Source of the DNA: a virus
Direction: 5' to 3' (one strand)
Virus record (IMG/VR): IMGVR_UViG_3300002460_000021
Location: 1 to 64,000 of that record
DNA length: 64,000 nt
The notes under the pieces are model-generated. The model was not told the DNA's origin and made no database searches. It was given only the letters and a program-made list of their open reading frames with translations. Positions 159 to 62,801 of the stretch are shown here, piece by piece; within the stretch, counting starts at the first letter, position 1, and the number at the start of each line of letters is the position of its first letter. Position numbers and translations under genes: made by a program.

Positions 159-172
159 AATATCCGGATATT
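159..172. repeat. AATATCCGGATATT palindrome copy 1
   Basis: Exact match; extends to 16 bp (158-173). Confidence 0.95.
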
Positions 173-231
173 GTAGAAAGCAGCTGCCGCGCAACTTGCT
201 ACTTTCGAGTGAGAAGGTACACCCCTCTCTA

Positions 232-265
232 TTTAATAGTGACAAGAAAAGGCCCGATATTTAGC
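232..265 (-). promoter_or_regulatory. Putative phage promoter CTAAAT-N15-GTCACTATTA
   Basis: Same motif and spacing at 750-783, 8549-8582 and 21872-21905, each upstream of minus-strand genes. Confidence 0.6.
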
Positions 266-319
266 TAAAAAGAAGCGCCCGTTATGGACGCTTCCTTTGC
301 TGCCGCGGCGGCCAGCACT

Positions 320-484
320 TTACTTGATCCACTCCACGCGGCGCCATTCGCCGCTGATCTTGACCTCGTACCCAAGCTGGTCCTTGCTATCCCGAACCGT
401 GCGGCGCAAACCGCACGGCAGGAAGTTGTAACACTCGACCGTCATCTTGACGGTCGTCTTGGCGACCTCTTTGGCTGCAAGCAC
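320..484 (-). CDS. Small hypothetical protein, 54 aa (MLAAKEVAKTTVKMTVEC...VEWIK)
   Basis: Manual translation; AAAGGAG RBS, GTG start. Confidence 0.6.
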   Translation of the reverse strand: MLAAKEVAKTTVKMTVECYNFLPCGLRRTVRDSKDQLGYEVKISGEWRRVEWIK

Positions 485-505
485 TGAAATCTCCTTTAGA
501 CAGAA

Positions 506-691
506 TTACTCTTTGCCGACGACCACGTCGACAAATTTAAAAATCATAATGACCAACATTATGATCCCGCAGCCCAGCGCGGTACCGCCAAAGTACCGCG
601 GACTCTGAAACAGATGCGAGATGACGACGCTACAAATGAGCGATGTCATCATCACGTACGCTCCGTAAATCGTAAGTACCGTATTCTCCAT
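506..691 (-). CDS. Small two-TM membrane protein
   Basis: Two hydrophobic segments; AGGAG RBS. Confidence 0.65.
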   Translation of the reverse strand: MENTVLTIYGAYVMMTSLICSVVISHLFQSPRYFGGTALGCGIIMLVIMIFKFVDVVVGKE

Positions 692-749
692 ATTGTACTC
701 CTAGAAACAGTGGGTCCACTGACGGCTATTTAAAATAACCGGCGACACG

Positions 750-783
750 TTTAATAATGACAAGAAATTGGCAGTTATTTAGG
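750..783 (-). promoter_or_regulatory. Putative phage promoter CTAAAT-N15-GTCATTATTA
   Basis: Second copy of the repeated motif. Confidence 0.6.
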
Positions 784-803
784 TCGCGCTAGATGTACTA
801 ACG

Positions 804-980
804 CTACCCAATGGATGTGAGGCAAAGCACAGCTCGGACCACGCGAAATGTGTGAACAATAGCCGCCCCCCTGCTAAGGCTTGCCTCACAGTCTGCGGAA
901 GAGGTGCAACTACAGGACCTACGCTGAGACTTACTAGTTTTGACGAAGACAATGCGAGGCCCAAAATATACTGGCAGCAT
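804..980 (-). CDS. Possible Ser/Arg-rich microprotein, 58 aa (MLPVYFGPRIVFVKTSKSQRRSCSCTSS...)
   Basis: Manual translation; hydrophobic N-terminus then S/R/C-rich; weakest member of the family. Confidence 0.4.
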   Translation of the reverse strand: MLPVYFGPRIVFVKTSKSQRRSCSCTSSADCEASLSRGAAIVHTFRVVRAVLCLTSIG

Positions 981-992
981 TTTGTTATCTTT

Positions 993-1208
993 CTAATTGG
1001 AACGACTGCGAACATGAATTGAAGCCGGATATGAGATGACCCGGCAACCAGATCCAGATACTGAGTAGCCCCTAGTTCCGCTCTGGGTAGGCATAACGCC
1101 GTATCCAGATCTGTATTTAGTGGTCCTGGAAGAAGCGCATCGAGAAGCAGCACGATAAATCCGACCGCTGAACAAACACCACGAAAAACTACCGCAAAAT
1201 AGATACAA
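993..1208 (-). CDS. Ser/Arg-rich microprotein
   Basis: AGGAG RBS with TTG start; contains the YSVSG motif shared with other members. Confidence 0.6.
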   Translation of the reverse strand: MYLFCGSFSWCLFSGRIYRAASRCASSRTTKYRSGYGVMPTQSGTRGYSVSGSGCRVISYPASIHVRSRSN

Positions 1209-1212
1209 AACA

Positions 1213-2916
1213 TCACTCCTCTACAGCTACTTCTTCGATGGCAGTTATCAGCCCCTGATCGTTGCGCCGTATAATCTTACGCGTGCGCGGCATTACCATC
1301 TGGACAACTTGATTAGATCTGCTAGCCATCTCCGCCAGCTTCTCTTGAATTTTAGTCATTCCAGCCCTTAGCTCCACCAACTCAGCGGTTGGCTTGGCGG
1401 GCTCAACAATATCCGGATATTGCGCAGCTGGCGTTTTAAAGTTTTCAAAATGTAATAGCAGATCCTCCAGTGCCGCGGTTTTCTTTAAACCTACCGGCTT
1501 TGTAAGATCGCCGTCCAACCACTTTTTAAAATCAACCATGGTCATGGGAGTAATGGCGCCAAGCCCTGTCCAATTCTTTGGATAGTGCTTGAGGTACATA
1601 TCTTTAGCTTCCTCCAAGAAGCGGAACCCGAGCATTACCTTGTGCTCATCGAATGTACCGTCCTTCTTGACCTGATCAACTACGAACACGATTTCACTCT
1701 CGGGGTGCTCGCCAACATAAACATCGACAGGATCACCATCTGCACCCACGCCGACACGACGCAGATAGCCGTAATTAATTAGCATATTGCGTTTGCCGGA
1801 TACCTTGGGAGCGCTGGTGTCGCCATCTTCTAAATGAGAATAGAAATAACGAGTAGCGCCAGCTGGGTATTCGATGGAGATATCGAATCCGTGTAAATGA
1901 ATATGGTGCTTACGAAAATTGCCAGCTTCCAGCTGCGCCGGTGTTGGCGACTTGTGATCGAATTCAGCCAGGGCCTGCTCTAGTCGCTCTGGATAATGTT
2001 CCTTGGCATGCCCTTCTTTGTTGCCGTCAACTGAATTACTTCCGCTAAAACGATAATCAGATTTAGATTTACCTATGGGGGAAGTAGGGTCACCCTTGGA
2101 CTCCGACGGTGCCGCGCGACCGGACGTAACCGCAGGAAGTGCGGGTTCTGGCCGCGGCTGAGTAGCGGCTTGCGCAGGGTTAATGGACTGTAGCCCGTTA
2201 TTCGAAGCTTGTTGCACGGCAGGCGGCGTGGGCGTAATAGCCGGTTGTGGAGAAGGCAAGGATGGTTGTTGCGCATTATATGGATTATTTGCCGGCAACA
2301 CGTGAGATACTGGGCGTTGCGGCATTGTGCTATAGGCCATCTCGCCATTGACCAGTAGCGCCCCGGGTATAGTATTTGATGCGGAGGGATCGACGTTGCG
2401 CGGCGGTGCTGGCAGAATAGCCTCGTTTTGGAAGAACGCCGCCTTGGTGACGGCGTACACAAGAGCATGTATCGGCATGAGATCTAAACTGGGAGAAAAT
2501 GCGTCGGTAGGCGGCATAGGCGAATCTTCCGGAATAACGAAGTGCTCTTTGGCTTCTTTGTGGCTTTCTTGTTTTATCAGGCCTAGAGGCAACTGAAACG
2601 ACGCGCCGCAAAGTTGTGGGGACAGCCCGAGCTTGCGCCGTATGTCCTCAAGATCGGGGCTAATTACACTAACTGATATGCTGTGATCATCCGACAGCTG
2701 GGAGCCAGTAAAAATAGTGGCGTTTACGTCGGCGAATCTGCTAATGCCTCCAGCTTTTGCCAGCTCACTGCCTGTCAGCACAGGTACATAGGCCGCCGTA
2801 TACCGAACAATATCGTTGGCGCACTGTGCCGCGGCATCTTTAACAAAAGATGGCGGTACCGGCATAACCAACCAACCGCTATAACTCGCCAACGGACCAG
2901 AATAAGAACACGTCAT
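1213..2916 (-). CDS. Multidomain protein with InPase (inorganic-pyrophosphatase-like, polyvalent-protein type) domain; degenerate 2H-like N-terminus
   Basis: PTPAQLEAGNF..H...G..ISIE.P.G..R / YGY / GADGDPVDVYVG / FDEHKVMLGF motifs; Pro-rich linker. Confidence 0.7.
   Translation of the reverse strand: MTCSYSGPLASYSGWLVMPVPPSFVKDAAAQCANDIVRYTAAYVPVLTGSELAKAGGISRFADVNATIFTGSQLSDDHSISVSVISPDLEDIRRKLGLSPQLCGASFQLPLGLIKQESHKEAKEHFVIPEDSPMPPTDAFSPSLDLMPIHALVYAVTKAAFFQNEAILPAPPRNVDPSASNTIPGALLVNGEMAYSTMPQRPVSHVLPANNPYNAQQPSLPSPQPAITPTPPAVQQASNNGLQSINPAQAATQPRPEPALPAVTSGRAAPSESKGDPTSPIGKSKSDYRFSGSNSVDGNKEGHAKEHYPERLEQALAEFDHKSPTPAQLEAGNFRKHHIHLHGFDISIEYPAGATRYFYSHLEDGDTSAPKVSGKRNMLINYGYLRRVGVGADGDPVDVYVGEHPESEIVFVVDQVKKDGTFDEHKVMLGFRFLEEAKDMYLKHYPKNWTGLGAITPMTMVDFKKWLDGDLTKPVGLKKTAALEDLLLHFENFKTPAAQYPDIVEPAKPTAELVELRAGMTKIQEKLAEMASRSNQVVQMVMPRTRKIIRRNDQGLITAIEEVAVEE
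1408..1421. repeat. AATATCCGGATATT palindrome copy 2 (inside CDS, encodes QYPDI)
   Basis: Exact match. Confidence 0.95.
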
Positions 2917-2931
2917 AACGATCTCCGCACT

Positions 2932-2945
2932 AATATCCGGATATT
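2932..2945. repeat. AATATCCGGATATT palindrome copy 3
   Basis: Exact match, just upstream of the 2916 start codon. Confidence 0.95.
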
Positions 2946-2969
2946 ACTCAGTCAATTTATGATACCCGA

Positions 2970-3230
2970 TTAGTACATGTGCTCTCTATATGACAAGCTG
3001 CCACGACAATGCGTGCTAGTTCTAGAAGCGCAATAGCCGCAAATAGCGCTACCGCTCACAGTTCTGCTGTACGACCTAGTGCTGTGATACACTCCTGACA
3101 TGCTGAGTACATAAGTTCTATTGGCGCCGCTACGAGCCACAGAACTATGTCTACCATTAATTTGCAATACTCGTGGAGAACGACTAGACGCGCTACAATC
3201 TACCCTTACCCGAATAGAGTACAGCAACAT
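2970..3230 (-). CDS. Ser/Arg-rich microprotein
   Basis: S-x-S periodicity, hydrophobic N-terminus, part of a tandem array. Confidence 0.65.
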   Translation of the reverse strand: MLLYSIRVRVDCSASSRSPRVLQINGRHSSVARSGANRTYVLSMSGVYHSTRSYSRTVSGSAICGYCASRTSTHCRGSLSYREHMY

Positions 3231-3236
3231 ATTATT

Positions 3237-3440: not shown

Positions 3441-3451
3441 GCTATCTCCGA

Positions 3452-3658: not shown

Positions 3659-3669
3659 GCTAGCTCCTG

Positions 3670-3792: not shown

Positions 3793-3797
3793 TTGCA

Positions 3798-4222: not shown

Positions 4223-4239
4223 GCCCCCTCCGATAATTA

Positions 4240-8637: not shown

Positions 8638-9738
8638 TTAACTAGTGCGCTTGCGCAGCTCTTGCAGACGTACTTCCGGAAGACCCAATCCACCGACCAT
8701 GACATAACAACGTAAATCGTCCTGGGCGCCAGGATATAGCGCATGATGTACAACAGCGCCAGGAGCTAGCATACGACTAATTGCCGCGGCGCTATAGTCC
8801 AGGAACTCAACGGGCAGCTTAGAAAAAACAGAGGGCCCGCCAACGAAGACCAGTGCCGCGCGAGTTCCTTTACTAAGATCGACGTCGACCACGGTGTTAC
8901 GCAAGAGCTGATCTCGCATGGCCTTGGCTACGTCAGATTCAGTGTCACACGGTTTAATTATAGTCGATCCCAAGACAACCGATCCGGAATCCATTATGGT
9001 GGCGAAGTCAATCTTATCCAACGGCTTGTATTCAGATGACGTTGCCGCGATCCTGTTAAACAGATGTAGCAAAGTACAAAAGCCGTTGTTGCTAATAGTC
9101 CAGAACTTATCGATGGCCGTACGCGGGTATAACACCTTGCTGAGCTTTTCGTTATCGACGACTAGCAGCGGGCTAAGCGCCGGCTGAGCAGCCTTAATCT
9201 TATCGAACGCGACCGCGGCGTTTTGCGCGGCACAGGTGCCTTCCTCATTTTTAGGCAGCGCCACCATTCCGCCAATCCTAGCAGGACGCCGTAACCCGTC
9301 AAAATAAGCGCGCAGGACACTTACAGCCACCGGCCAGGTACCGCTACCTGTGCCCCCACCAGCTCCAAAACAAACTAGCGCGTAATCAACTTCGTCACCA
9401 AGACAACGCTTGAATAGGTCGTGGACATCTTCTTCACGGCCCGTGATGGCCTTAAGCGCTACAGCGGGATCCTTGCCGGCGCCGCCAGTGCCCAGGTCCA
9501 GCTTATTGGCAGCTGGCAAATTTAAACTGTCTAGATCCTGCTTGGCTGTGTTTATGGCGACTACGCGACGATAGCCCAGGCCATAGTAGTGCGCGGCTAG
9601 GCGTCCGCCAGCTTGTCCCAGGCCAACGAAAGCCAGCTTATATGCTAGCTCCCCAGAAATCTCGTCATTAACTTTGTTGCCACGGTCCACTGCTTCTGGG
9701 ACGGGGATATCGCCCACGTCGATGAGACTGCCAGACAT
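8638..9738 (-). CDS. Tubulin/FtsZ-superfamily GTPase
   Basis: FVGLGQAGGRL, AINTA..DL, GAGKDP, signature GAGGGTGSG, VVDNEKL, T7-loop-like PLDKIDF; likely start MSGSLIDV. Confidence 0.9.
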   Translation of the reverse strand: MSGSLIDVGDIPVPEAVDRGNKVNDEISGELAYKLAFVGLGQAGGRLAAHYYGLGYRRVVAINTAKQDLDSLNLPAANKLDLGTGGAGKDPAVALKAITGREEDVHDLFKRCLGDEVDYALVCFGAGGGTGSGTWPVAVSVLRAYFDGLRRPARIGGMVALPKNEEGTCAAQNAAVAFDKIKAAQPALSPLLVVDNEKLSKVLYPRTAIDKFWTISNNGFCTLLHLFNRIAATSSEYKPLDKIDFATIMDSGSVVLGSTIIKPCDTESDVAKAMRDQLLRNTVVDVDLSKGTRAALVFVGGPSVFSKLPVEFLDYSAAAISRMLAPGAVVHHALYPGAQDDLRCYVMVGGLGLPEVRLQELRKRTS

Positions 9739-9827
9739 ACAGGAATCCTTTCTATTTAACTCACTGATCGAAGATTGAACTAAAATGGTGCCACGCCGAT
9801 GCTGTGCTACCAAACGGCACCGCCTCT

Positions 9828-9841
9828 AATACCCGGATATT
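9828..9841. repeat. Palindrome variant AATACCCGGATATT
   Basis: One mismatch; overlaps the TAA stop at 9840-9842. Confidence 0.8.
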
Positions 9842-10085
9842 AACTGCTAACTGCGTTGGTACTTGCCAGCTGTTTCTCCAGCGCAGCGACCTTATTCTCG
9901 AGTTCAACACAGCGCTTGCATGTTACTATTCGCCTATAGGCCGTGCAATTACAAGACTTATGAGAAACGTTATTCCCCGACCAGCCGGCCTTGAACTCCA
10001 CTATAGCGCCACTGCCATGACACTTGGAGCACTCAGGATCTGGGTAGTTACCCCAGCGAACAGGACTGTCATAACATGATAGCAT
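9840..10085 (-). CDS. Small Cys-rich zinc-finger protein
   Basis: CSKCHGSG and further Cys pairs. Confidence 0.55.
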   Translation of the reverse strand: MLSCYDSPVRWGNYPDPECSKCHGSGAIVEFKAGWSGNNVSHKSCNCTAYRRIVTCKRCVELENKVAALEKQLASTNAVSS

Positions 10086-15129: not shown

Positions 15130-16626
15130 TTAGGGGCGCTCGGCAATGCCCCAATTAAATAGGATAGGAGGAAAATCTAAGCCCACAGTCTTGCAGAACA
15201 TCGCGTATGCATTTTGAACACCTTCATCCTCCTGACCTGACACAAGGAAGGCCCCAGGTGAAGATAGCATATTCCAGCCCAAACGCAAACCGGTTGTCAA
15301 ATTATCTACAACCGACTTACCGTCCACCACAACAGCCGAGTACGCTGCATTGAGCTGTCGACTAGACATTACGTTAGATATTGAATTATTGATAGCCCTG
15401 ATAGCACAGGGCCGCGACACACGCCAGCTTGCCTTAGTTACAGCGGCCACTACAGCGGATAGATCACTCTCACTAACCAATGTAACATGCGCCAGTGGCG
15501 TACCGCTGTCCAATACTCCGGTAACAAAAGCCGCCGTGTTAGCGGCAGAGGACGGATTTAAAAACAATACCACACGAGAGCGGTAGTGTCGCCCCAATGC
15601 GTAGCTAATGGCATCCGTATCTGCCGGCCAGCCGTGCTGAGTGGGTTTGAACTGCCGCGCATAACCAGCCAATACGGCCGCCGGTTCCTCGCCTGGTAAT
15701 TTAGATGAAACTGGACCGATGAGCGGAGACCATGCGGTTTGATTGTTGTGCCGCAGCGCGGCACATATGCCCTTAACTCCTTCTTTAAACTCGGCGTCTG
15801 TACTGACATGCAACTGATCTGTAAATTCAGGATCCGCCCATGATCCCCGCAAGTTAGGAAGTGCTCGAGGATTGACACACATACCTGGAACTCTAAGCAC
15901 GTTGGCTAAAATAGTAATTCCAGACGCGTGACCAAGACAATATTTAGCGCGCCCCAACAAATGATACACATCAGCCCACGGCAGGTCAGTGGCAATAATC
16001 GCCTTAGGCGCCTCATTACGGATTCGTGGCAACAGCCTTGCACTGCGGCCGTCGTATGTGCCAGTCATTATATATACGTTAGCTACTTCACTAAGTACGG
16101 CCGCAGAAGCTACCCATGTCTCATCGTGAATATCTGACCAGCCGGTGAAGTGGAGAACGACTATGGGGTCATCCGCTTTTAAAGTCGATACGCCCGGATC
16201 ACCCATGCAATAGTGAAAGTTGGTGGGCAGATCTGGTAGGTAGTCTTGAAGTAAGTTGCCGTCCTCCAGCCACCGATTAACCTCTAGACGGGTCCGAATA
16301 TTTGGTTGAATATTTAAATCGCGCCAACGCCTACCGTAAGCGGCGGCCGCATGGGAGGGCGGTACCCATGTACCATGCTCGTAAAAATATTCGTCGCTAT
16401 ACCGATATCCCAGTACGTGGGGCAATTGATCCAAGTAACCGGATGCGCGACGCGGACGTGTAGGTGCTTCGTTTGCCAGGTCTAAAAAAATAGGTAGCGG
16501 CAAATTGCATAGCTTCGAATAGAGCCACGACAAATCACCTATGCCAGAGTGAGTAAACAGATGATAGCAGGCGACACCTGGTGGCGGCGCAACCATCTCT
16601 TTCTTGCTCACGACATGCCCTTTCAA
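15130..16626 (-). CDS. GT9-like (heptosyltransferase-like) glycosyltransferase with extra C-terminal domain
   Basis: N-terminal SGIGDL and central LLGRAKYCLGHASGITILANVLRVP (GT9 DSG..H.A..L..P pattern). Confidence 0.6.
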   Translation of the reverse strand: MKGHVVSKKEMVAPPPGVACYHLFTHSGIGDLSWLYSKLCNLPLPIFLDLANEAPTRPRRASGYLDQLPHVLGYRYSDEYFYEHGTWVPPSHAAAAYGRRWRDLNIQPNIRTRLEVNRWLEDGNLLQDYLPDLPTNFHYCMGDPGVSTLKADDPIVVLHFTGWSDIHDETWVASAAVLSEVANVYIMTGTYDGRSARLLPRIRNEAPKAIIATDLPWADVYHLLGRAKYCLGHASGITILANVLRVPGMCVNPRALPNLRGSWADPEFTDQLHVSTDAEFKEGVKGICAALRHNNQTAWSPLIGPVSSKLPGEEPAAVLAGYARQFKPTQHGWPADTDAISYALGRHYRSRVVLFLNPSSAANTAAFVTGVLDSGTPLAHVTLVSESDLSAVVAAVTKASWRVSRPCAIRAINNSISNVMSSRQLNAAYSAVVVDGKSVVDNLTTGLRLGWNMLSSPGAFLVSGQEDEGVQNAYAMFCKTVGLDFPPILFNWGIAERP

Positions 16627-16629: not shown

Positions 16630-16643
16630 AATATCCGGATATT
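16630..16643. repeat. AATATCCGGATATT palindrome copy 4
   Basis: Exact; overlaps TAA stop 16642-16644. Confidence 0.95.
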
Positions 16644-17391
16644 ATAGCGGCTTCTTCCAGACGACCTGAAGTTTTCCAGCTATCGGAATTGCTTCATGTA
16701 CTCGTTCAAAACTGGGTAAGGCCTTGGAGCGCAACATCTCTAGTGAAGGCGACGAAAAATGAAATAGATGCTCATCTGGCTTGTGATGTGAAAATGTTTC
16801 CAGGTTTTCATCGAGGTGCTGGCCAATGTCTGGGAACTCGAACACTAGACAGCCGCCGGCCGCTAAGTTATCGCCAGCGTGCGAAACTACGGCGAAAGGA
16901 TCAGCAACGTGCTCGAGTACATCAAAAAAACTAATTACCTGTGCCTCTGGAGTGCAACCGATAAAAAATTCGTAAGACGTTTCCACAGCAGCTATTAGGA
17001 AGTGGCTCAGATCCTTACAAAAGGCAGGATCTGTCTCAACACCTATTACGGAATATCCGATTTGCCGCGCCAGAGATATGAACCCGCCAGAGCCACAACC
17101 TACATCTACCCACAAACAATCGGGGCTGGGGCCAGGCAGCACGTGGGAGAGTTGTTGCATACGCTTAAGAGCTACGCCGCGATCGTGCTGAAAACGTTCC
17201 CACACGCCAAGCCGTAGTCCGACTTGTGCTCGCGCGGCATCGTAATTATCGCGCGTATATACTGCCATAGGATCTGCTGGCAGTCTAACCTGGAAAACTA
17301 GCGAACAGTTTAAACACTTGCGAAATAAATCATCACTACATGAGGCCAGCTGTTCGCTCAGGCACACCGGACAGTAAAGACACAAGTCCAT
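16642..17391 (-). CDS. Class I SAM-dependent methyltransferase with N-terminal Zn ribbon
   Basis: CPVC..CLNC; VDVGCGSG; FDVLEHV.DP; EHLFHFS. Confidence 0.85.
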   Translation of the reverse strand: MDLCLYCPVCLSEQLASCSDDLFRKCLNCSLVFQVRLPADPMAVYTRDNYDAARAQVGLRLGVWERFQHDRGVALKRMQQLSHVLPGPSPDCLWVDVGCGSGGFISLARQIGYSVIGVETDPAFCKDLSHFLIAAVETSYEFFIGCTPEAQVISFFDVLEHVADPFAVVSHAGDNLAAGGCLVFEFPDIGQHLDENLETFSHHKPDEHLFHFSSPSLEMLRSKALPSFERVHEAIPIAGKLQVVWKKPL

Positions 17392-19319: not shown

Positions 19320-19333
19320 AATATCCGGATATT
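19320..19333. repeat. AATATCCGGATATT palindrome copy 5
   Basis: Exact; overlaps TAA stop 19332-19334. Confidence 0.95.
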
Positions 19334-19529
19334 ACCCGCAGCAGCCGGCGTCGTCTTCGTTACACCGTGATGGCGAGCAGTACTTGGCAATAGCGTCAGC
19401 CATGCGCTTAGTTGGATGCGCGGCCAGATGTCGTAGAGAACACGGCTTATCCGACTGTGCCGCTTTTTCTACTGTCCCCTGATCCTCGGGCGGAGTGTTT
19501 TCCGCGTTAATCATACCGTGTTTTTCCAC
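19332..19529 (-). CDS. Small hypothetical protein
   Basis: GAGG RBS, GTG start. Confidence 0.6.
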   Translation of the reverse strand: MEKHGMINAENTPPEDQGTVEKAAQSDKPCSLRHLAAHPTKRMADAIAKYCSPSRCNEDDAGCCG

Positions 19530-21772: not shown

Positions 21773-21871
21773 ACTTTGTGGCCCGTTAGAAACACAGAGC
21801 CGGCTAGCAAGCGCCAGCCGGCTCTTATCGAAACACGGTCTGCCGCGCTAAGCGGCAGTGACAGAAGACTA

Positions 21872-21905
21872 GTTAATAATGCCAGGAAAGCTATTTAAAT
21901 TTAGC
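21872..21905 (-). promoter_or_regulatory. Putative phage promoter CTAAAT-N15-GGCATTATTA, followed by two leader hairpins (21797-21858)
   Basis: Fourth copy of the motif. Confidence 0.6.
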
Positions 21906-21921
21906 ATGCCGCGCGAACGCG

Positions 21922-23390: not shown

Positions 23391-23404
23391 AATATCCGGA
23401 TATT
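23391..23404. repeat. AATATCCGGATATT palindrome copy 6
   Basis: Exact; overlaps TAA stop 23403-23405. Confidence 0.95.
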
Positions 23405-29623: not shown

Positions 29624-29634
29624 AGTGCTGCCCC

Positions 29635-30726: not shown

Positions 30727-30740
30727 AATATCCGGATATT
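30727..30740. repeat. AATATCCGGATATT palindrome copy 7
   Basis: Exact; overlaps TAA stop 30739-30741. Confidence 0.95.
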
Positions 30741-43541: not shown

Positions 43542-43555
43542 AATATCCGGATATT
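43542..43555. repeat. AATATCCGGATATT palindrome copy 8
   Basis: Exact; overlaps TAA stop 43554-43556. Confidence 0.95.
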
Positions 43556-43799
43556 AGTCGGATCCAGTGGACTGCTCTGCTCCGGTGGTCGGTCGATTAC
43601 AGTTAACGGCAGCCACGATCTCAGCCACGGATTCGAGCTCGGCGCTAATGCACCAGCTGTTCTTGAGCGCGTCCATAATGACACGCAGCATACGTATTGT
43701 ACCGCGCACAAACAACCAGCACAGCAGCAGCTGCTGGATGAATACGGCAGCAATAAACAGCACAGCCACAAACAGAGGGTCGCTAAACAAATCGTTCAT
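43554..43799 (-). CDS. Small membrane protein (start MNDLF)
   Basis: One TM helix; AAGGGA RBS. Confidence 0.6.
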   Translation of the reverse strand: MNDLFSDPLFVAVLFIAAVFIQQLLLCWLFVRGTIRMLRVIMDALKNSWCISAELESVAEIVAAVNCNRPTTGAEQSTGSD

Positions 43800-43800
43800 C

Positions 43801-48398: not shown

Positions 48399-48412
48399 AA
48401 TATCCGGATATT
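48399..48412. repeat. AATATCCGGATATT palindrome copy 9
   Basis: Exact; 18 bp extended; 3 nt upstream of the sbcC ATG. Confidence 0.95.
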
Positions 48413-51637: not shown

Positions 51638-51670
51638 TACGTGTTTCCAATCTGTTTAACCGATCAATTC

Positions 51671-51714
51671 AACTAACCTCTAGCTAATATCCGGATATTA
51701 GCTAGAGGTCAGTT
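51671..51714. repeat. 44-bp near-perfect palindrome centred on AATATCCGGATATT (copy 10, 51686-51699)
   Basis: 34 bp perfect (51676-51709), one mismatched pair, then 4 more pairs. Confidence 0.95.
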
Positions 51715-51908
51715 AAACGAGGAGGTGGCGGTAAGTGGTCCTCGCCTTCCGTTCGAACCTTAACAATCCGAGGTGCGTATACCTCTAGGTTTTGTTGGTT
51801 ACACTTTAAACATAATCTATTGGTAACCCGGTTTTCGGAATAAAACCTCGCAGCGCACTTCAAGCAGTAGCGGTAACCGCCAAGCTTGGGTTGCTTCTTG
51901 CTACCCAT
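51702..51908 (-). CDS. Small zinc-finger protein (start MGSKKQ)
   Basis: CLKC...NRLCLKC. Confidence 0.6.
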   Translation of the reverse strand: MGSKKQPKLGGYRYCLKCAARFYSENRVTNRLCLKCNQQNLEVYAPRIVKVRTEGEDHLPPPPRLTDL

Positions 51909-51927
51909 GGTCGTCGCGTCCTGCTCT

Positions 51928-53082
51928 CTAAAGTGTGCCCACAAGTGAGCACGGTTTAGTTCCTGCTTCAACGATGCCCGTTGACATCTCCACAGGCGTT
52001 ACTTCGCCGAAAGCCTCGGCTAGACTTCGTAAGTTTAATGCGGCGTTTAGATCACGATCGATTCGCAAACCGCACTCACATACGAAGATTCGTTCACCAA
52101 GCGACAACTTGTCCTTAATGAGTCCGCAAGATGAACAAGTCTTGCTAGACGGAAAGAAACGGTCAGCCACGACAATCTGCGTCCCGTATTGCTCAGCCTT
52201 ATAGGTGAGTAAGGAACGGAACTTTCCGAAACTGGCATCGCTGATCGATTGTGCAAGCTGGTGGTTATGCACCATCCCACGCACGTTTAAATCTTCGATT
52301 ACTACCGCCCGGTTTTGGCGGCAGAGACGCGTTGTCAGTTTGTGATGATTGTCGTGACGGATGTTTCCAATGCGCTGATAGATGCGAGCAACCACCTTGC
52401 GTTGTTTGTTGCGATTACCTGACCCCTTGACGCGGCGGTGTAGTTTTCTGTTGGCTCGACGCAGTCGCCGCTGCGCCTTGCGAAGCGGTCTCGTGTTTTC
52501 TATCTTCTCTCCAGTGGACAGCGTAGCCAGCATAGCGATACCCAGATCAACGCCAACGATCCCATTATCTGTGCGTGGCGTCTTAATATCGCCAATATCG
52601 ACTGAAATGCAGACGTACCATTCACCACAATCCTCAACGACACGGGCCGAATTGATCTTGCCAGCGAAGCACAGAGCTTCGCGCATTTTAACCTTGCCAA
52701 TTCTAGGCAGACGAATCATTTTGTCGCTTAGGGAGAACTTATCATTAGCAACATAAAACGAACGACGTGTCTTGTTTCTACTCTTGAAAACTGGCTTTCG
52801 TCCTCGTCCGGCGAAGAAGTTACCGAAGGCTGTTTGCAGATCGGAGAATGGTTGGGAGTGGCAGTCGCGATGGACTTCACGTATCCACGGGAATGTTTCT
52901 GGATAAAGGGCGTTGAATTGGGTTTTCAATTTATTGGCGTTTGTCTTCTTGCCTATTTCATAACGCCTGTTCAACTCAGCGAGTGCCCAGTTGAAAACGA
53001 AACGATGCGTACCGGAAGCGTGGACGAAATATTTGCGTTGCCGACAAGTTGGATCAAGTCTTATCTTGTGCGTCCGTTGCAT
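51928..53082 (-). CDS. tnpB: TnpB RNA-guided endonuclease
   Basis: HKIRLDP, RFVFNWAL, GVDLG, VIEDL, FFPSSKTCSSCG, CECG..IDRDLNAALNL; D-E-D intact. Confidence 0.93.
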   Translation of the reverse strand: MQRTHKIRLDPTCRQRKYFVHASGTHRFVFNWALAELNRRYEIGKKTNANKLKTQFNALYPETFPWIREVHRDCHSQPFSDLQTAFGNFFAGRGRKPVFKSRNKTRRSFYVANDKFSLSDKMIRLPRIGKVKMREALCFAGKINSARVVEDCGEWYVCISVDIGDIKTPRTDNGIVGVDLGIAMLATLSTGEKIENTRPLRKAQRRLRRANRKLHRRVKGSGNRNKQRKVVARIYQRIGNIRHDNHHKLTTRLCRQNRAVVIEDLNVRGMVHNHQLAQSISDASFGKFRSLLTYKAEQYGTQIVVADRFFPSSKTCSSCGLIKDKLSLGERIFVCECGLRIDRDLNAALNLRSLAEAFGEVTPVEMSTGIVEAGTKPCSLVGTL

Positions 53083-53312: not shown

Positions 53313-54059
53313 TTAAAGCGGCGTATTTTTAAATACTTCCATTGCCTGAGCCACAGCTTCAGACGCCGCCTGGCACGTTCGCCTACAGCGCGTGTCGCCC
53401 AAAATGTTGTCGTTATTAATTCGAGTAGTGGCGGCCTGCTCGGCAAATTTAACTCGCATGAGCTCATCAGCAGGAAGGTTATCGCGCAAGTTAGCTTTAG
53501 CCGGCAACTGCCGCGCACTTTTAACTGTCTTGGCGTTACCGCCAAGAATAGGATAGTAAATAGCGTTAGTGCAGCCGGCATAATCAGTCACTTCGTGTTC
53601 AGACAATGTCGATGTTAGCGTCTTACGTTCGACAATACCTTCCTCGCGACTCTCGATCCACTCGCCACTCTTGCCCAAGGCCTCGTACTTCTTGCGTCGC
53701 CTAGCGTCGTACACACCGGTCTTTCGGATGGCGGGAAGCACCTCGCCGGCAACCCAGTCCATAAATGCCGCGGCCTCTGGCTTACGAGAACGGAAAGTCA
53801 GCCTATAGACAGCGGCCTCGCGGATAATGACAACATCCTGCTGCTGGAAGCCAAGACTGCCGTGCTGGTTACTTAGGGGGGTAAGGAGTTTCCTCACCCC
53901 CCTCCAATCTGCCGGAATACCAGCCAGTGTCTTGCTGTTCCAGGTAAGCTCCAGAGCGGCGCAGACGTCCCTAGCTACAAACCAGGGCTCGTTGTTAATC
54001 ATAACGGGTGGGCGGATTTCATGGCCATTAAATTTCAGTGCCTGCATAGCTGTTGCCAT
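53313..54059 (-). CDS. BRO-N domain protein (antirepressor-like)
   Basis: EPWFVARDVC.AL, E.AVYRL.FRSRKPEA..F.DWV..EVLPAIRKTG.Y. Confidence 0.88.
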   Translation of the reverse strand: MATAMQALKFNGHEIRPPVMINNEPWFVARDVCAALELTWNSKTLAGIPADWRGVRKLLTPLSNQHGSLGFQQQDVVIIREAAVYRLTFRSRKPEAAAFMDWVAGEVLPAIRKTGVYDARRRKKYEALGKSGEWIESREEGIVERKTLTSTLSEHEVTDYAGCTNAIYYPILGGNAKTVKSARQLPAKANLRDNLPADELMRVKFAEQAATTRINNDNILGDTRCRRTCQAASEAVAQAMEVFKNTPL

Positions 54060-55341: not shown

Positions 55342-56175
55342 TCATACGTCGTCAAGAGCGTAGCGCGGCAATGAGCGCATAAGACCGTAAGTAGCCGAGG
55401 CGCGTATTCCCTGCCGCGCCTTGACGAGTCTCATAAATTTAGACGGCCTACAAGTCATTAGATGCCGCGGATACCTCATAACACGCCCAACAAACCACGC
55501 CAGTTTCCACGGACAAAACTCAATATCCGGATATTCCCTGGTTATGAATACATCACCAAACCAGTGTGGTAGTTTTACGTCGCGGCCTAGCAGCATAAGG
55601 CCCACGCGCCTTACCGACCATGCGCTCTTATTAACTGGCTCAGCAACTAGCTGCAAATAGCCGGCAGCCGGTTGCAGCGCAGATGTGCGACAGTGCCACC
55701 TTTTTCTATCAGATTTAAGCATTTGCTTCAATGAAAGCCGCGCGTTACAGACGGAATCATGCAGCGAAGTCCTAAACCCATACAGCGTCAATGGTTCTAT
55801 GGAAGTAGCGTCTGACAATATATTAGAAAATCCACGGTAAACACGAACGACTTCCCGCCCATAACACCACGGACACACCGTAGTCTGATGACACCATCTC
55901 TTGTGGTGAGTCGATACGAGACCAATTGGGTTGCAGTAAGAGCAAGGATAGACGCCAAGTTTCCCAGTAATGGCCTGCCACTCCGAGTCGTATAACGTTG
56001 AAATACGCGTGCGCCACATTTTATGGACAATTCCCGTTAGTCGTTCGTGCTCGTGCCGCGCAGCCGGATCACTAGGCCACGGCACTTTTCCAGCCAGTGG
56101 CAGCAAGACCGCAAATCTGGCAGCCATGATCTCAGGCGTACAGAACAATCGGTTGATGATCAGGGGCTTAGACAT
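55342..56175 (-). CDS. Divergent Rep_1-like (rolling-circle initiator fold) protein
   Basis: C....VCPWC, LTL, G.....E, RY, and C-terminal GIRASATYGLMR; HUH histidines absent. Confidence 0.45.
   Translation of the reverse strand: MSKPLIINRLFCTPEIMAARFAVLLPLAGKVPWPSDPAARHEHERLTGIVHKMWRTRISTLYDSEWQAITGKLGVYPCSYCNPIGLVSTHHKRWCHQTTVCPWCYGREVVRVYRGFSNILSDATSIEPLTLYGFRTSLHDSVCNARLSLKQMLKSDRKRWHCRTSALQPAAGYLQLVAEPVNKSAWSVRRVGLMLLGRDVKLPHWFGDVFITREYPDIEFCPWKLAWFVGRVMRYPRHLMTCRPSKFMRLVKARQGIRASATYGLMRSLPRYALDDV
55522..55535. repeat. AATATCCGGATATT palindrome copy 11 (inside CDS, EYPDI)
   Basis: Exact match. Confidence 0.95.
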
Positions 56176-56199
56176 GACAAATTCCTCGGGGCTAACGCA

Positions 56200-57060
56200 A
56201 TAATAGCCGGCATAAGCAGAAAATCAAGCAAAACTTGGTGACCGTACTGCTAGATTACCTAAACTACCCAAACTACCTAAGCACAACTCTAGGTAATCTG
56301 GGTAAGATGGAAACTAGTGAAATATCAAAGACAAAGCGGATACGGTCGGTTTTTATTGGCGTAGGCGGCGAAGCCTCCAAAAGTGCAAATCTGCTGTAAA
56401 AATAGGCAAATACTGCGTATGTATAGTTTTGTATATTTTCAAAATTTTAGTGCTCATTTTTAGCAAAAAAGCCGACGTAACACATCTGACGATTGTTTCC
56501 ATACGTCCTACCAAAAGCGCTCAAAATTAGGCCCAAAATCAAGAATAGTCACTTTCTGCCATAACAATATAGTCATACACAAGTTATGGCAAAACATCGA
56601 GTAGCATACTTGAGATGTAGCTATTGATGTAACTCCTTATTAAATAAGTAGTTATATAAACCGACCAAATTGTACTAGCAGTTATTACCTAACTATAATT
56701 CTATATAGTTTGCGGTGCGCCGGAAGACGCGCACCTGAAGGCAAACTATATAGAATTATCCCTACGGGCATCTTCAGTTCGTTAGTCCCCTGTCAGTACC
56801 CGGCCTAACTTCACTTCGATGCCCGTGCGGGGTGGTAAGATTAAAAACACAAAACACCACTCTCAAAATAACAACGCCAGCTACCGAATATCGGTAACCG
56901 GCGTAATGGCATGTCCTCGTTATTAACACTATCCGTTTATTTAAATCAGGCTCGCTTAAAATAAACTTAAAACTAAAAAGTGATCTGAGCCTCGTCTATG
57001 CTCTTTAGAGGCCGGCTAATGCTAAATGGAGCGTTCGACCAGCAGCTCGTAATGAGAGGT
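56200..57060. other. AT-rich non-coding region with several inverted repeats; candidate replication origin or structured RNA
   Basis: No ORF of 60 aa or more within it; 19-bp perfect IR 56695-56713/56741-56759 with an inner 7-bp stem; further IRs and short direct repeats. Confidence 0.55.
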
Positions 57061-57070
57061 ATTATTTAGG

Positions 57071-57294
57071 TTAGCGCCTACAACCGCTCAATCGGGATAC
57101 TTTTCTAGGTGTTGAGCCACTATTACGTCTCAGTTCAGATATGCTGCAGTAGTGCGGTCGTTGTAAAGCTCTTGAATAGGAAAACGCTGTAGCCGTAATA
57201 CTTCCAGCCGCGATACTTGTAGCTCGATAACCAGATCATAAGCTGCGGTAGGGCCAGCAATATATCGCGGAAATCACAAATAAAATTTTAGCAC
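57071..57294 (-). pseudogene. Decayed Ser/Arg-rich microprotein
   Basis: GTG start out of frame with ...YRSL*SGYRATS...AFSYSR...SRLSGCRR; internal TGA at 57236-57238. Confidence 0.5.
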
Positions 57295-57301
57295 CTGCTT
57301 T

Positions 57302-57726: not shown

Positions 57727-57954
57727 TTAGCGCTCCAGTCTACACATCCTTATCGAGGTAGATCTAACAGCCGGGCCATAGCTGGACTTTGTCCATGGCT
57801 TATACTTACCCGTAGTCCTAGTACGTGAGATAGATCTTATTCTGCTACCGGGCCTGTCCCAATGTAAGCTATAGGATTCAATAGCCACCCGACATACCGA
57901 CGATGACCGGCAACAAGACCGACGCTCACTGTACAACGAGGTATACATCAGCAT
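57727..57954 (-). CDS. Ser/Arg-rich microprotein
   Basis: WTKSSYGPAVRST, paralogous to 57517-57726. Confidence 0.75.
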   Translation of the reverse strand: MLMYTSLYSERRSCCRSSSVCRVAIESYSLHWDRPGSRIRSISRTRTTGKYKPWTKSSYGPAVRSTSIRMCRLER

Positions 57955-57977: not shown

Positions 57978-57991
57978 AATATCCGGATATT
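57978..57991. repeat. AATATCCGGATATT palindrome copy 12
   Basis: Exact; intergenic within the microprotein cluster. Confidence 0.95.
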
Positions 57992-58003: not shown

Positions 58004-58234
58004 TTACTTTCGCGGGCTTGACTGAGATTTAACGTAACAAGCATTTGCTGCTCTTGAACTTGAATAAGATGCACTTTTAAATATGTTAGAACCTGTCACT
58101 CTACGTCTCAGGGCAGTAAGGGTAGAGCCATATAATGAACTACTGCGTCCGCTATAAGAGCCTACATACCTCTCTCGGCCACAAGATGTAGACCTTCTAT
58201 TGTCACATAGCAAACTACTTAACAACTTTAACAT
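58004..58234 (-). CDS. Ser/Arg-rich microprotein
   Basis: GSYSGRSSS, SASYSSSR; GGAG-like RBS. Confidence 0.7.
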   Translation of the reverse strand: MLKLLSSLLCDNRRSTSCGRERYVGSYSGRSSSLYGSTLTALRRRVTGSNIFKSASYSSSRAANACYVKSQSSPRK

Positions 58235-59005: not shown

Positions 59006-59007
59006 TG

Positions 59008-59726: not shown

Positions 59727-59737
59727 CTTACTCCTGT

Positions 59738-60436: not shown

Positions 60437-60454
60437 TTAGCGCCCCGTTATGAA

Positions 60455-60487
60455 CAGGGCCCGGCGTAGCAGCTACGCCGGGCCCTG
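60455..60487. repeat. Perfect 16-bp-arm inverted repeat (terminator or leader hairpin)
   Basis: CAGGGCCCGGCGTAGC-a-GCTACGCCGGGCCCTG. Confidence 0.8.
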
Positions 60488-60512
60488 CAACGCCCACCAT
60501 TAATTCAAAACA

Positions 60513-60737
60513 TTATCCTTGGCTTTCGCGCTGCATCTGCGCCGCGGCGTGCATACGCGACGCCTGCACCCAGTTCCACAGTTGATCGTACGTGGCGGTG
60601 TATTTCTGATGCGATCCCTTGGTCCAGATCTCTAGAACTTTCCCGCCTTCTTTAAGCTTAATCAGCAGGTTCTTGCCGGTACGTCCGTCGACCGCCGCCG
60701 TTTCACGCGCAACGCTTCTCGTCAATGCCGTAGCCAT
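60513..60737 (-). CDS. Hypothetical protein
   Basis: TAATG coupling, GGAGG RBS. Confidence 0.65.
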   Translation of the reverse strand: MATALTRSVARETAAVDGRTGKNLLIKLKEGGKVLEIWTKGSHQKYTATYDQLWNWVQASRMHAAAQMQRESQG

Positions 60738-61054
60738 TACCTTTCCTCCGGGCCATACACTTCGTGCTCAAAATCTTTCAAACCATACAGGCAAAGCTGA
60801 ACATTTTGGAAAACGCCCGGGCCGGCGTCCTGTAAGTTCCAGACAACTAGCGAATACGCAGATTTGTTACTATTAAGCGGTTTGTTCTTCGCCCTAATAA
60901 GGGCCTGTCGTACTTTTTCCGGCGTCATGTCATGCTGGGCGTCGCCGCTGAGTCCGCTAATTTTAACAGTGCGTTTTTCCCAATTAATCTCTAGCAAACC
61001 TACAGCACATTCGTCGAGAGCCTTATCAATGCACTGCTGACCTTTACTCATCAT
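60737..61054 (-). CDS. Hypothetical protein
   Basis: TAATG coupling. Confidence 0.6.
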   Translation of the reverse strand: MMSKGQQCIDKALDECAVGLLEINWEKRTVKISGLSGDAQHDMTPEKVRQALIRAKNKPLNSNKSAYSLVVWNLQDAGPGVFQNVQLCLYGLKDFEHEVYGPEER

Positions 61055-61743
61055 TACACCAGGGTTAGAGATAAGCGACGGCCGGTCTCAAATGTACGCG
61101 GCGCTGTAAAACAATACTGACAGCGTGAACATGTGACTTTAGTTTGTCGCGGGATCGCTTGTTCGTACGGACATACCAGGCTTCCGCCGGGGGTAAACCG
61201 CATGGGCGTTGCCTCCTTTTCACGGAAGACAAGATCGACCGGAAAGTCCGGTTGATCTGTGTCGTCAACGCTGAGGTAGGCTACGCGCACGCGTCTGGCC
61301 CGGGGCGGGCGGCCGGTATCGCGATCCGCTGAAAACCAAAGACGCACGTTGGGTTCGCGGCCCAGTTCCCGCAATAGCGGTAAGAGACCGGGTACGCGGT
61401 AGCTTCGAGTATAGGCATAGATAGTCACGTGGGGGCTGGCTCGTGCTATCTGTAGCCACTTCTTGATATATCGTTTGCTGAAGAAGTCGCCGGCGCAGTG
61501 TATCCGCAAGATACGGACACGTCGTTTAGCCAATTCCTGTAACATGCGCGGCACGAACGTACGTTTTCTGGTTCGTTCTAAGTTACGCTTTTGTTTATCT
61601 AGTACCCAGCTGGTTTTAAAGCGACCGCGTAGCGCGTAACAGATACTAGAGCAAAGTGGCGTAGCACCAGGACAAGTATGAAGGGCTGGGATACTAAAAG
61701 ACCATATTCTACTACCTAGCTTACTATTCCCTTTTGTCAGCAT
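61054..61743 (-). CDS. GP88-like (radical-SAM-like Fe-S) phage protein
   Basis: LTKGNSKLG, SFSIPA..TCPGA...C...CYA, RIH.AGDF, YAYTRS, CP...CSRCQYC. Confidence 0.75.
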   Translation of the reverse strand: MLTKGNSKLGSRIWSFSIPALHTCPGATPLCSSICYALRGRFKTSWVLDKQKRNLERTRKRTFVPRMLQELAKRRVRILRIHCAGDFFSKRYIKKWLQIARASPHVTIYAYTRSYRVPGLLPLLRELGREPNVRLWFSADRDTGRPPRARRVRVAYLSVDDTDQPDFPVDLVFREKEATPMRFTPGGSLVCPYEQAIPRQTKVTCSRCQYCFTAPRTFETGRRLSLTLV

Positions 61744-61978
61744 CGCTAATTCCTTTTCGCGTTTTACTTTCAATTACTGTATCGTTGATTGCTAGTGCCG
61801 CTAAATTATTTAATTCTGTGTCTGACAATGTTGCCAGATAAGTAGTTACAAGCGTGTGTAACCTGATATGTTCACGTACATAATCGTAGGCGCAGCGGTA
61901 TTTGTAGTGCTGATTATCCAACTTTAACCGCTCCTTCTCTGGGTAACACGGAGGCGTGATCCAGGCGCACTGGCTCAC
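61724..61978 (-). CDS. Hypothetical protein
   Basis: ORF track; start uncertain. Confidence 0.4.
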   Translation of the reverse strand: MSQCAWITPPCYPEKERLKLDNQHYKYRCAYDYVREHIRLHTLVTTYLATLSDTELNNLAALAINDTVIESKTRKGISDADKRE

Positions 61979-62171
61979 AGCAGTGAAGTAGTTTCACACG
62001 ATAGTTACCTTCTCGTAGAACAACGCCCCAGGCGTCGGGATGCAGGTTGCCCTGAATGGCCGCACGTACTATCGGACGCAAGTTCATCTCGTTAGGGTGG
62101 CCAGACGGCACGCTGTCTTCAGAGCCAGCGCCGCCAATAATCTCAACGTCTATGGATATTCTAAAAACCAT
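61914..62171 (-). CDS. Hypothetical protein
   Basis: ORF track. Confidence 0.5.
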   Translation of the reverse strand: MVFRISIDVEIIGGAGSEDSVPSGHPNEMNLRPIVRAAIQGNLHPDAWGVVLREGNYRVKLLHCCEPVRLDHASVLPREGAVKVG

Positions 62172-62192
62172 GCTATGACCCCCAGATCAATA

Positions 62193-62465
62193 TTAAACTG
62201 GTGTTGTGGGCGTGTTGGTAGTTGCTGGTAGTTTGTCGGCCACGTTAATTAACATTTTACCGATTTGTACAATCACACCACGTTGCGCGGCAGGAGACTT
62301 CTCCCTGCCGCATATCATGCCGGCAGGGAAGTCATTTTGACCGACCTCCCAGTCAGTCACTAGCACTAAGCTGCGCACTTCTGGACACGTTTCCATATTG
62401 GATAGCGCCCACTCTCTAAAACTATCTAGCAACTTCTCATAGCATACTGGCGCATGTTCGCTCAT
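62193..62465 (-). CDS. Hypothetical protein
   Basis: ORF track. Confidence 0.6.
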   Translation of the reverse strand: MSEHAPVCYEKLLDSFREWALSNMETCPEVRSLVLVTDWEVGQNDFPAGMICGREKSPAAQRGVIVQIGKMLINVADKLPATTNTPTTPV

Positions 62466-62473
62466 TAAGAGGG

Positions 62474-62770
62474 CTACTCCCTAAGTTTGTGATAAAGCTG
62501 CCATCCCGATATCGCTGCGCCGGGTATGTATATAACCCAGCGACTAAGCCAGCTATCGGCAGGAAGCCAGTACATAGGAACTTGCCAGAGAATAAACAGC
62601 GTAGCGGCAATCCAGAACGACATGCACAACGGGCATGCTAGTAGTTCGACCACCCACGAATCGCTGACCTCCAATCTTGCGCGGCAGGTCGCGAATAGGC
62701 TGCCATGAAACCAGACCATCATCACCCCACACGTGGCGAGCACCCAGAATAACAAATCTAGCGCAATCAT
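62474..62770 (-). CDS. Membrane protein with CPLC.SFW motif (DUF1360-like)
   Basis: LF...R....ELLACPLCMSFW plus TM helices. Confidence 0.55.
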   Translation of the reverse strand: MIALDLLFWVLATCGVMMVWFHGSLFATCRARLEVSDSWVVELLACPLCMSFWIAATLFILWQVPMYWLPADSWLSRWVIYIPGAAISGWQLYHKLRE

Positions 62771-62779
62771 AGTGCTAAA

Positions 62780-62801
62780 CCTCAATATCCGGATATTGAG
62801 G
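62780..62801. repeat. 22-bp palindrome containing AATATCCGGATATT (copy 13, 62784-62797)
   Basis: CCTCAATATCCGGATATTGAGG, overlapping a GC-rich hairpin at 62798-62827. Confidence 0.95.

Follow-up and report, generated by a model that had tools for sequence, protein, structure and literature searches.

What keeps a 14-bp palindrome, AATATCCGGATATT, recurring in virtually invariant form along a phage genome? The question is raised by the first 64,000 bases (bases 1-64000, hereafter the window) of the virus record IMGVR_UViG_3300002460_000021. The whole record measures 98,681 bp and is ~50% complete according to CheckV, i.e. about half of a phage genome estimated at ~204 kb. A first-pass annotation of the window had taken the palindrome for a genome-wide site of a dimeric protein. 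The explanation we favor, although it stops just short of being probable, is that the copies would serve a dimeric phage protein as docking sites throughout the genome. This protein would most likely be a ParB/KorB-like product of 331 amino acids (aa), and cassette exchange between copies would be a by-product.

A motif search of the window recovered 13 exact copies of AATATCCGGATATT and one copy with a single mismatch (AATACCCGGATATT on the plus strand, at 9828), confirming every position that the first-pass annotation had given. With up to two mismatches allowed, the window contains 14 matches, whereas the expectation from 100 dinucleotide shuffles is 0.18 and no shuffle exceeded one match; the copy number is ~90-fold above chance. 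The rest of the record adds exact copies at 77032, 89128, and 94838, resulting in a total of 16 exact copies and one variant, at a density of one per 5.8 kb, spread over structural, replication, and accessory modules. Across the record, words with 0, 1, 2, 3, and 4 mismatches number 16, 1, 2, 2, and 36, where 0.0, 0.014, 0.28, 3.3, and 27.9 are expected. The half-site GGATATT is not enriched outside the copies in the record (13 vs 10 expected). In 16 of the 17 copies a pyrimidine precedes the word and a purine follows it, and alignment of all 17 revealed no conservation beyond 16 bp. Written in full, the site is a 16-bp palindrome without spacer, YAATATCC|GGATATTR, which has the format of ParB/parS-type sites. 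Given unenriched half-sites, symmetric flanks, and an all-or-none mismatch spectrum, the unit is best described, as far as its letters can tell, as a perfect dyad of 14-16 bp that would be recognized as a whole two-fold symmetric word, which partly supports the earlier interpretation as a site for a dimeric protein. A restriction site was considered and rejected, as TCCGGA and CCGG occur at expected frequency outside the copies in the record.

The copies are placed with respect to gene structure. Thirteen of 17 are not wholly inside coding sequence, whereas 92.5% of all 14-mers in the record are wholly coding (P = 4e-12). In about seven copies, a preceding T and the first AA of the word form the TAA stop of the upstream gene, and a Shine-Dalgarno motif plus start codon follows 12-23 nt downstream in 8 of 17 copies, compared with 10% of control positions. 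Even among the four copies counted as coding, the one at 48399 is intergenic, because homology of the SbcC/Rad50-like open reading frame (ORF) sets in only at the ATG after the site: every PHROG alignment starts at residue 29, which is the ATG at 48395. This leaves three true in-gene copies (1408, 55522, and 77032), all in the (Q/E)YPDI frame; the first-pass annotation had counted two. Its view that spacing ignores gene function is borne out, but position follows gene structure.

How the in-gene copies arose can be judged from protein families. In the alignment of the 277-aa family, the copy at 55522 replaces residues without a gap, i.e. by substitution and not insertion, and in the 567-aa protein the copy at 1408 falls into an unalignable linker after the InPase domain. 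A mobile 15-bp unit landing in genes was rejected on these grounds, and the alignments indicate that in-gene copies arose by substitution in tolerant places. The earlier claim that the word imposes YPDI on unrelated proteins holds for these two. The copy at 77032 coincides with the family-typical YPD motif of a GT9 heptosyltransferase, and a GT9 paralogue carries a two-mismatch copy coding YPAI; at this position the site owes its sequence in part to the protein motif, and not the reverse.

Consensus scans of the record found sigma-70-like promoters and intrinsic terminators at chance frequency and not coupled to the copies, which overlap only one chance promoter-like match and one weak terminator-like match. 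This lack of coupling, along with the span over structural, replication, and accessory modules, agrees with the earlier statement that the palindrome is not a regulon-specific operator. A promoter reading was rejected, as GATATT used as -10 element would start the transcript after the ribosome-binding site, and the long intergenic gaps have another, AT-rich motif. The latter, AAATTTAAATAG ... CTGGCAT(T/A)ATT, is shared by three such gaps, was never found together with the palindrome, and may be a phage promoter.

AATATCCGGATATT is private to this phage. Other IMG/VR contigs with the 16-mer carry one chance copy each, one contig having two in its terminal repeat, and bacterial genomes hold a single copy each, as chance predicts, among the matches listed (120 stretches). 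No close relative was found by megablast against phages, by DNA polymerase and portal in IMG/VR, or by portal in JGI metagenomes. All portal relatives found share at most ~53% identity, with hundreds of uncultivated ones at ~50% on contigs of 190-230 kb. A dispersed 12-bp palindrome is absent from all 80 portal loci scanned, and synteny among 50 compared loci is limited to the portal and one other gene.

Relatives were scanned de novo for palindromes in eight complete ~200-kb genomes and half of a ninth, and several have words of their own. G005 contains AGATATCT 42 times (0.6-1.5 expected), with the longer forms CAAAGATATCTTTG and AATAGATATCTATT; G002 contains TGATATCA 31 times and TTGATATCAA 21 times; G003, G011, and G006 carry weaker versions of these words, and G009 harbors a different one, AAAAGTACTTTT, five times in 100 kb. 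The scan gave no over-represented palindrome in G007, G008, and G010. Densities are one per 4.9 kb in G005 and one per 6.4 kb in G002, compared with 5.8 kb here, and spacing is more even than random in both (coefficient of variation, CV, 0.56, P = 5e-5, and 0.74, P = 0.05, respectively). In G005, 36 of the 42 AGATATCT copies lie within called ORFs, in all three frames and encoding different peptides, and all five AGATATCT sites within 22 kb shared with a contig 74% identical are kept at orthologous places. As the relatives' palindromes show no enrichment before start codons, the junction bias in the present phage suggests a coding constraint, namely the difficulty of fitting a 14-mer into codons. 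We use the relatives' words as an analogy and not as proof of one shared system. The density of the motif is kept over the whole record; the nine relatives lack AATATCCGGATATT, and several have words of their own. If the analogy is carried further, a clade of uncultivated ~200-kb phages would keep lineage-specific, evenly spaced, orthologously conserved palindromes selected in all frames (AATATCCGGATATT, AGATATCT, TGATATCA, and AAAAGTACTTTT), at about one per 5-6 kb. These might serve an undescribed genome-level function in lytic jumbo phages, e.g. as loading or anchoring sites of a ParB-like protein without ParA and with degenerate CTP motifs, organizing or marking the chromosome, and might double as cassette-exchange joints; we regard this generalization as possible but doubtful.

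Which protein could read the site? Pfam searches of every ORF returned as nucleic-acid binders only the sigma-like factor, an HNH-HTH (helix-turn-helix) protein, TnpB, and the Bro-N proteins, and PF02195 (ParB N-terminal) is absent from the record even at E = 10. Three genes had been named as candidates by the first-pass annotation (Table 1), and among all proteins of the record only the product of one of these, 26864-27859, gave a ParB/KorB-like signal. In the ESM Atlas, features of this 331-aa protein scored 0.95 to ParB/Srx, HTH_ParB, and KorB clusters, and its stored predicted model reached template-modeling (TM) scores of 0.48-0.56 over 211-246 residues to eight ParB clusters (ParB_N+HTH_ParB). 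Aligned by eye to ParB, the stretches YYPLDMNHRIAAAIRNGAKTVDAYV and LSRDEMLANANFMINNFGALTKEIIAK presumably correspond to box II and to box III plus HTH, respectively. The candidate looks ParB/KorB-like by features and predicted structure, but not at sequence level. An identical protein is recorded on nine contigs, the longest of 203,762 bp, and a complete genome of this phage is probably present in public assemblies. A search of 5.8 billion proteins gave no relatives, and tblastn gave no homologue in nine relatives of the phage, which also lack AATATCCGGATATT. A phylogenetic profile across these nine pointed to no binder; only the occurrence of HldE and two GT9 genes roughly follows that of strong palindromes. 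The spacerless 16-bp palindrome fits the suggested kinship with parS/matS-type organizers, but no ParB is recognizable by sequence, family searches found no ParA/CbiA-type family in any ORF of the record (about half of the genome), and sites are dispersed rather than clustered at an origin. As KorB and Noc also have dispersed sites, dispersal and the missing ParA exclude only a classical parS role.

We infer from these observations that a phage-made, homodimeric, sequence-specific protein would read the 16-bp site on double-stranded DNA, the most likely reader being the divergent ParB/KorB-like 331-aa protein, for which no ParA partner was found. Sites would be kept at about one per 6 kb along the whole genome. 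As coding sequence hardly accommodates an exact 14-mer, they would be squeezed into the few bases that separate a stop codon from the following ribosome-binding site. Once bound, the protein would exert its effect genome-wide, by organization, by silencing or roadblock, or by marking of phage DNA, rather than at the operator of one regulon, and the identical copies would, as a side effect, become joints for cassette gain or loss.

Several points weigh against this explanation. Concerning the reader, the ParB-like call comes from one source, ESM Atlas, with a low feature overlap (141-154 of 256). The protein is blank in Pfam (even at E = 10), PHROGs, NCBIfam, PDB phmmer, and phage tblastn; its single-sequence AlphaFold model has a predicted local distance difference test (pLDDT) score of 42, and hhalign against three ParB_N-containing proteins gave no support. 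In the alignment by eye, the position that would correspond to the CTP-binding GERRxR motif reads DMNHRIAAA, and because the motif is not kept by this reading, a sliding clamp of KorB/Noc type is doubtful. No site adjoins the candidate gene, the nearest being ~3 kb off, and the true binder may be encoded in the missing half of the genome. Concerning the sites, evenness of spacing in this phage alone is marginal (CV 0.68, P = 0.06). Concerning the analogy, the phage shares more accessory genes with relatives having no such word, no ParB_N was found in 10 relatives, and the relatives' palindromes may be an unrelated system.

The junction placement could also be that of an intercistronic operator or roadblock, at which another phage regulator, possibly from the missing half, would block or pace transcription in co-directional operons, similar to stoperators. 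We consider this unlikely. It would suit the strong junction bias, with 8 of 17 copies 12-23 nt before a start, and the organization of the genome, where nearly all genes lie on the minus strand, co-oriented over >60 kb at a coding density of ~95%. Strong, terminator-like hairpins directly precede the copies at 48399 and 62784, and the phage encodes its own sigma-like factor and therefore reprograms transcription. However, a symmetric site can have no polarity, in contrast to the asymmetric, oriented stoperators; searches of the ORFs in this half of the genome gave no integrase or repressor family, and the targets mix structural, replication, and accessory genes. Moreover, the analogous words of relatives lie mostly deep in genes without bias to starts, and the coding constraint on a 14-mer explains the junction bias equally well.

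Two copies outside the window could point to a role in recombination. The baseplate J gene and a 479-aa gene, directly adjacent in six relatives, are split here by a 5.7-kb cassette of six genes whose limits coincide exactly with the copies at 89128 and 94838. The cassette carries a cytochrome c-like protein and a 634-aa protein with an intein holding a LAGLIDADG domain. An indel bounded by copies, resulting from between-copy recombination, is documented for the 17-bp repeat of Cluster O mycobacteriophages (PMC4351075). The palindrome might be the target of a phage nuclease or recombinase, or shared microhomology, for cassette swaps between co-infecting relatives, and the invariance of the word fits all-or-none recognition. 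Four copies lie directly 5' of a gene common to most relatives, with an unshared gene upstream. We nevertheless judge this distinctly improbable as the primary function. The cassette is the one clean case, and across all junctions copies are not significantly enriched at boundaries of shared and unshared genes (odds ratio 1.9, P = 0.32). Other insertions relative to relatives have no palindrome, and at the same junction G010 and G007 carry different inserts (4.1 and 0.5 kb, respectively) that lack AATATCCGGATATT. In-gene copies arose by substitution, a symmetric site would permit inversion as well as deletion, and any repeated binding site yields such events as a by-product.

Instead of a phage protein, a host protein of ParB, Noc, or SlmA type, or another nucleoid protein, could read the sites and be exploited by the phage. 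No phage binder was found by sequence searches, the site format resembles the Noc-binding site (NBS) and parS, and different words in different relatives would fit different hosts. Yet bacterial genomes carry a single chance copy each, a weak argument drawn from the 120 stretches among the matches listed, and genome-wide host sites are usually degenerate and not invariant. We rate a host reader slightly lower still than a dedicated recombination site.

An RNA-level element, i.e. a hairpin, processing site, or translational signal in the polycistronic mRNA, would explain why copies lie between cistrons just upstream of ribosome-binding sites, why the flank pair is U-G in four copies, pairing only in the sense transcript, and why the copy at 51686, the only one embedded in a long perfect hairpin, lies within a 21-bp stem. 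The bare palindrome, however, folds at 0 to -1.1 kcal/mol, not better than shuffles, and no Rfam family matched it. It is invariant without compensatory changes, unlike a selected structure, and the U-G flanks follow from the TAA stop that precedes the word and the purine-rich ribosome-binding sites that come after it, so that we think this very improbable. REP elements with a RAYT transposase have stable, G+C-rich, imperfect hairpins with a conserved 5' tetranucleotide and a cognate HUH Y1 transposase; such an element was rejected on the basis of hairpin energy and because family searches found no Y1_Tnp family in the ORFs of the record. An assembly or adapter artefact at contig junctions, which the first-pass annotation had raised, or a neutral functionless repeat has practically no credit, as the copies are internal to one contig, share ORF stops, keep gene frames open, and exceed chance ~90-fold, and the candidate binder is on record on nine contigs.

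Family searches give an outline of the phage itself. Replication and repair genes comprise a family A DNA polymerase, a DnaB-like helicase, an SF2 helicase, and SbcC/Rad50-like and Mre11-like proteins; virion genes include portal and baseplate J protein. Further genes encode PhoH, dUTPase, HldE, two GT9 glycosyltransferases, a tubulin/FtsZ-family protein, a sigma-70-like factor, a TnpB-like protein, HNH endonucleases, and two Bro-N proteins. Among cultured phages even the closest are very distant: the polymerase shares ~26% identity with T5-like phages and the portal ~25% with jumbo phages of Vibrio and Salmonella. Heptose and GT9 genes suggest a Gram-negative host. The sole variant copy of the palindrome precedes the tubulin/FtsZ-family gene. 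This gene has no tblastn homologue in any relative searched, and five complete relatives lack PF00091, among them G002 and G005, which have strong palindromes of their own. Because these relatives lack tubulin, a tubulin-centromere link is unlikely; the ORF of 81 aa that precedes the gene encodes a zinc ribbon and is not TubR-like.

Some observations concern neighboring features. The family of the 277-aa protein, which harbors one palindrome copy, comprises ~160 members and is marked by an invariant Cys4 cluster and an RYP motif. Its AlphaFold model is confident (pLDDT 85.5, predicted TM score, pTM, 0.88); Foldseek against PDB gave nothing at E <= 0.001, and VIA-align yielded weak similarity (best Z up to 4.3) to HUH Rep nuclease domains and GGDEF-like folds. 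Beside this gene, ~1.1 kb is nearly ORF-free (only a 51-aa ORF) and hairpin-rich, and is possibly an origin. The TnpB-like gene, on the minority strand, comprises OrfB_IS605, Cas12f1-like TNB, and HTH_OrfB_IS605 domains. With homologues of 35-39% identity in 8/8 complete relatives, and the same divergent neighbor in the three with coordinates read, it looks like a resident, possibly domesticated gene rather than a fresh insertion. The sigma-70-like factor has region 3 and a region 4-type HTH, with homologues of 40-45% identity in 8/8 complete relatives. Another word, GCCGCGGC, occurs 32 times in the record (1.7-3.9 expected) and is enriched in several relatives too; since 18 of 30 in-gene copies are in the Ala-Ala-Ala frame, its abundance is probably coding bias and not a signal.

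Table 1 Palindrome copies, candidate binders, and further features (window: positions 1-64000 of the record; higher positions lie in the rest of the record)
Feature	Position	Strand	Context
Exact copy	159..172		Near contig start; gene context uncertain
Exact copy	1408..1421		Within gene 1213-2916 of 567-aa InPase-domain virion-type protein; QYPDI in linker after conserved domain
Exact copy	2932..2945		Between 2970-3230 and 1213-2916; ATG 15 nt downstream, GGAG in between
Sole one-mismatch copy, AATACCCGGATATT	9828..9841		Overlaps stop of 81-aa zinc-ribbon ORF 9840-10085; 14 nt before start of tubulin/FtsZ-family gene
Exact copy	16630..16643		First AA completes TAA stop of 16642-17391; gene 15130-16626 next
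Exact copy	19320..19333		Overlaps TAA stop of 19332-19529; portal ATG (19301) 18 nt downstream
Exact copy	23391..23404		Overlaps TAA stop of 23403-24002; 13 nt before ATG preceded by GGGGG
Exact copy	30727..30740		Between 30739-31332 and 29635-30720, both with homologues in most relatives; overlaps upstream TAA
Exact copy	43542..43555		Overlaps TAA stop of 43554-43934; ATG of 42846-43529 12 nt downstream
Exact copy	48399..48412		3 nt before true start (48395) of SbcC/Rad50-like gene; terminator-like hairpin 48446-48425 just upstream
Exact copy	51686..51699		Tip of perfect 46-nt hairpin 51670-51715 (21-bp stem, -29.3 kcal/mol); 2 nt after stop of 51702-51971
Exact copy	55522..55535		Within gene of 277-aa Cys4 protein; EYPDI; substitution in variable stretch
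Exact copy	57978..57991		Between 58004-58234 and 57727-57954; ATG 23 nt downstream, AGGAG in between
Exact copy	62784..62797		Directly after 13-bp G+C-rich hairpin; 13 nt before ATG of 103-aa gene 62474-62785 (homologues in most relatives)
Exact copy	starts 77032		Outside window; within GT9 heptosyltransferase gene
Exact copies	start 89128 and 94838		Outside window; bound 5.7-kb cassette
Candidate binder, 331 aa	26864-27859	-	ParB/KorB-like by ESM Atlas features and predicted structure
Second named candidate	28826-29677		DUF1016_N-like; weaker structural resemblance to ParB
Third named candidate	53313-54059		Bro-N protein
Tubulin/FtsZ-family gene	8638-9813	-	
277-aa protein gene	55342-56175	-	
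ORF-poor, hairpin-rich stretch	56176-57301		
Long gaps with AT-rich motif	692-778, 21773-21921, 76079-76164		Third gap outside window
TnpB-like gene	67007-68188	+	Outside window
479-aa gene	87685-89124		Outside window
Cassette	89144-94788		Outside window
Baseplate J gene	94850-96502		Outside window
Sigma-70-like factor	97460-98245	-	Outside window

Among known systems, the stoperators of Cluster A mycobacteriophages (L5, Bxb1), which are temperate, are asymmetric, oriented with transcription, and bound by a monomeric immunity repressor, which blocks transcription. They share with the present palindrome the many copies of one short site in short gaps of long operons, but the site here is a perfect palindrome, and searches of this half of the genome revealed neither an integrase nor a repressor family, which sets it apart from stoperators. 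The promoter-early stem-loop (PeSL) elements of T4-type phages combine a promoter with a stable stem-loop, flank accessory cassettes, and are thought to mediate their shuffling. Both are repeated intergenic elements flanking an accessory cassette, although the palindrome has no promoter-like sequence and no stable hairpin.

ParB-family systems with dispersed sites are among the closest known. The OB operator is present in several dispersed copies on plasmid RK2. KorB, a ParB-family protein of this plasmid, binds the palindromic 16-bp OB and acts on gene expression at a distance (PMC11790492). The likeness consists in a 16-bp palindrome on a mobile genome and in a candidate binder with a ParB/KorB-like signal. 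In contrast to KorB-OB, no KorA or IncC/ParA partner was found, the GERRxR motif is not recognizable by eye, sequence-level membership is missing, and the sites lie in operon junctions, not near promoters, of a phage and not a plasmid. Noc of Bacillus subtilis, a ParB paralogue, reads the NBS, a palindrome of 16 bp whose arms are A/T-rich and whose center is C|G (TATTTCCC-GGGAAATA; PMC7383237), and NBS are scattered over the whole genome (PMC7383237, PMC8429893). The 8+8 format with C|G center is common to NBS, parS, and the present site, which agrees with NBS at 5 of 8 half-site positions (PMC7383237); it also fits the 16-bp OB (PMC11790492). NBS, however, form a degenerate family, are located on a bacterial chromosome, and have a known function in cell division, whereas the copies here are invariant and on a phage.

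Of the same anatomy is the repeat of Cluster O mycobacteriophages, a 17-bp dyad TGTTCGG-NNN-CCGAACA with 34 copies in Corndog and very few one-mismatch copies, which lies between and inside genes, is private to the group, and is mostly away from promoters; its function is unknown, and the authors, who describe indels from copy-to-copy recombination, suggest a dimeric binding protein (PMC4351075). The present palindrome is likewise an invariant dyad word, dispersed, private, between and inside genes, mostly non-promoter, and associated with a copy-bounded indel. It differs in lacking a spacer (7+7, CCGG center), in a stronger junction bias (13/17 copies compared with 14/34 between ORFs in Corndog; PMC4351075), and in the unrelated lineage and host, here of a ~200-kb phage. 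The palindrome thus belongs to a type of dispersed phage repeat that has been known since at least 2015 but is unexplained. To this type the present case adds a candidate binder whose ParB-like signal is visible only to structure-aware methods, evidence from relatives for DNA-level selection and even spacing of such words, and a cassette cleanly delimited by two copies. Should the 331-aa protein bind the sites, genome-wide systems similar to KorB and Noc would extend to large lytic phages.

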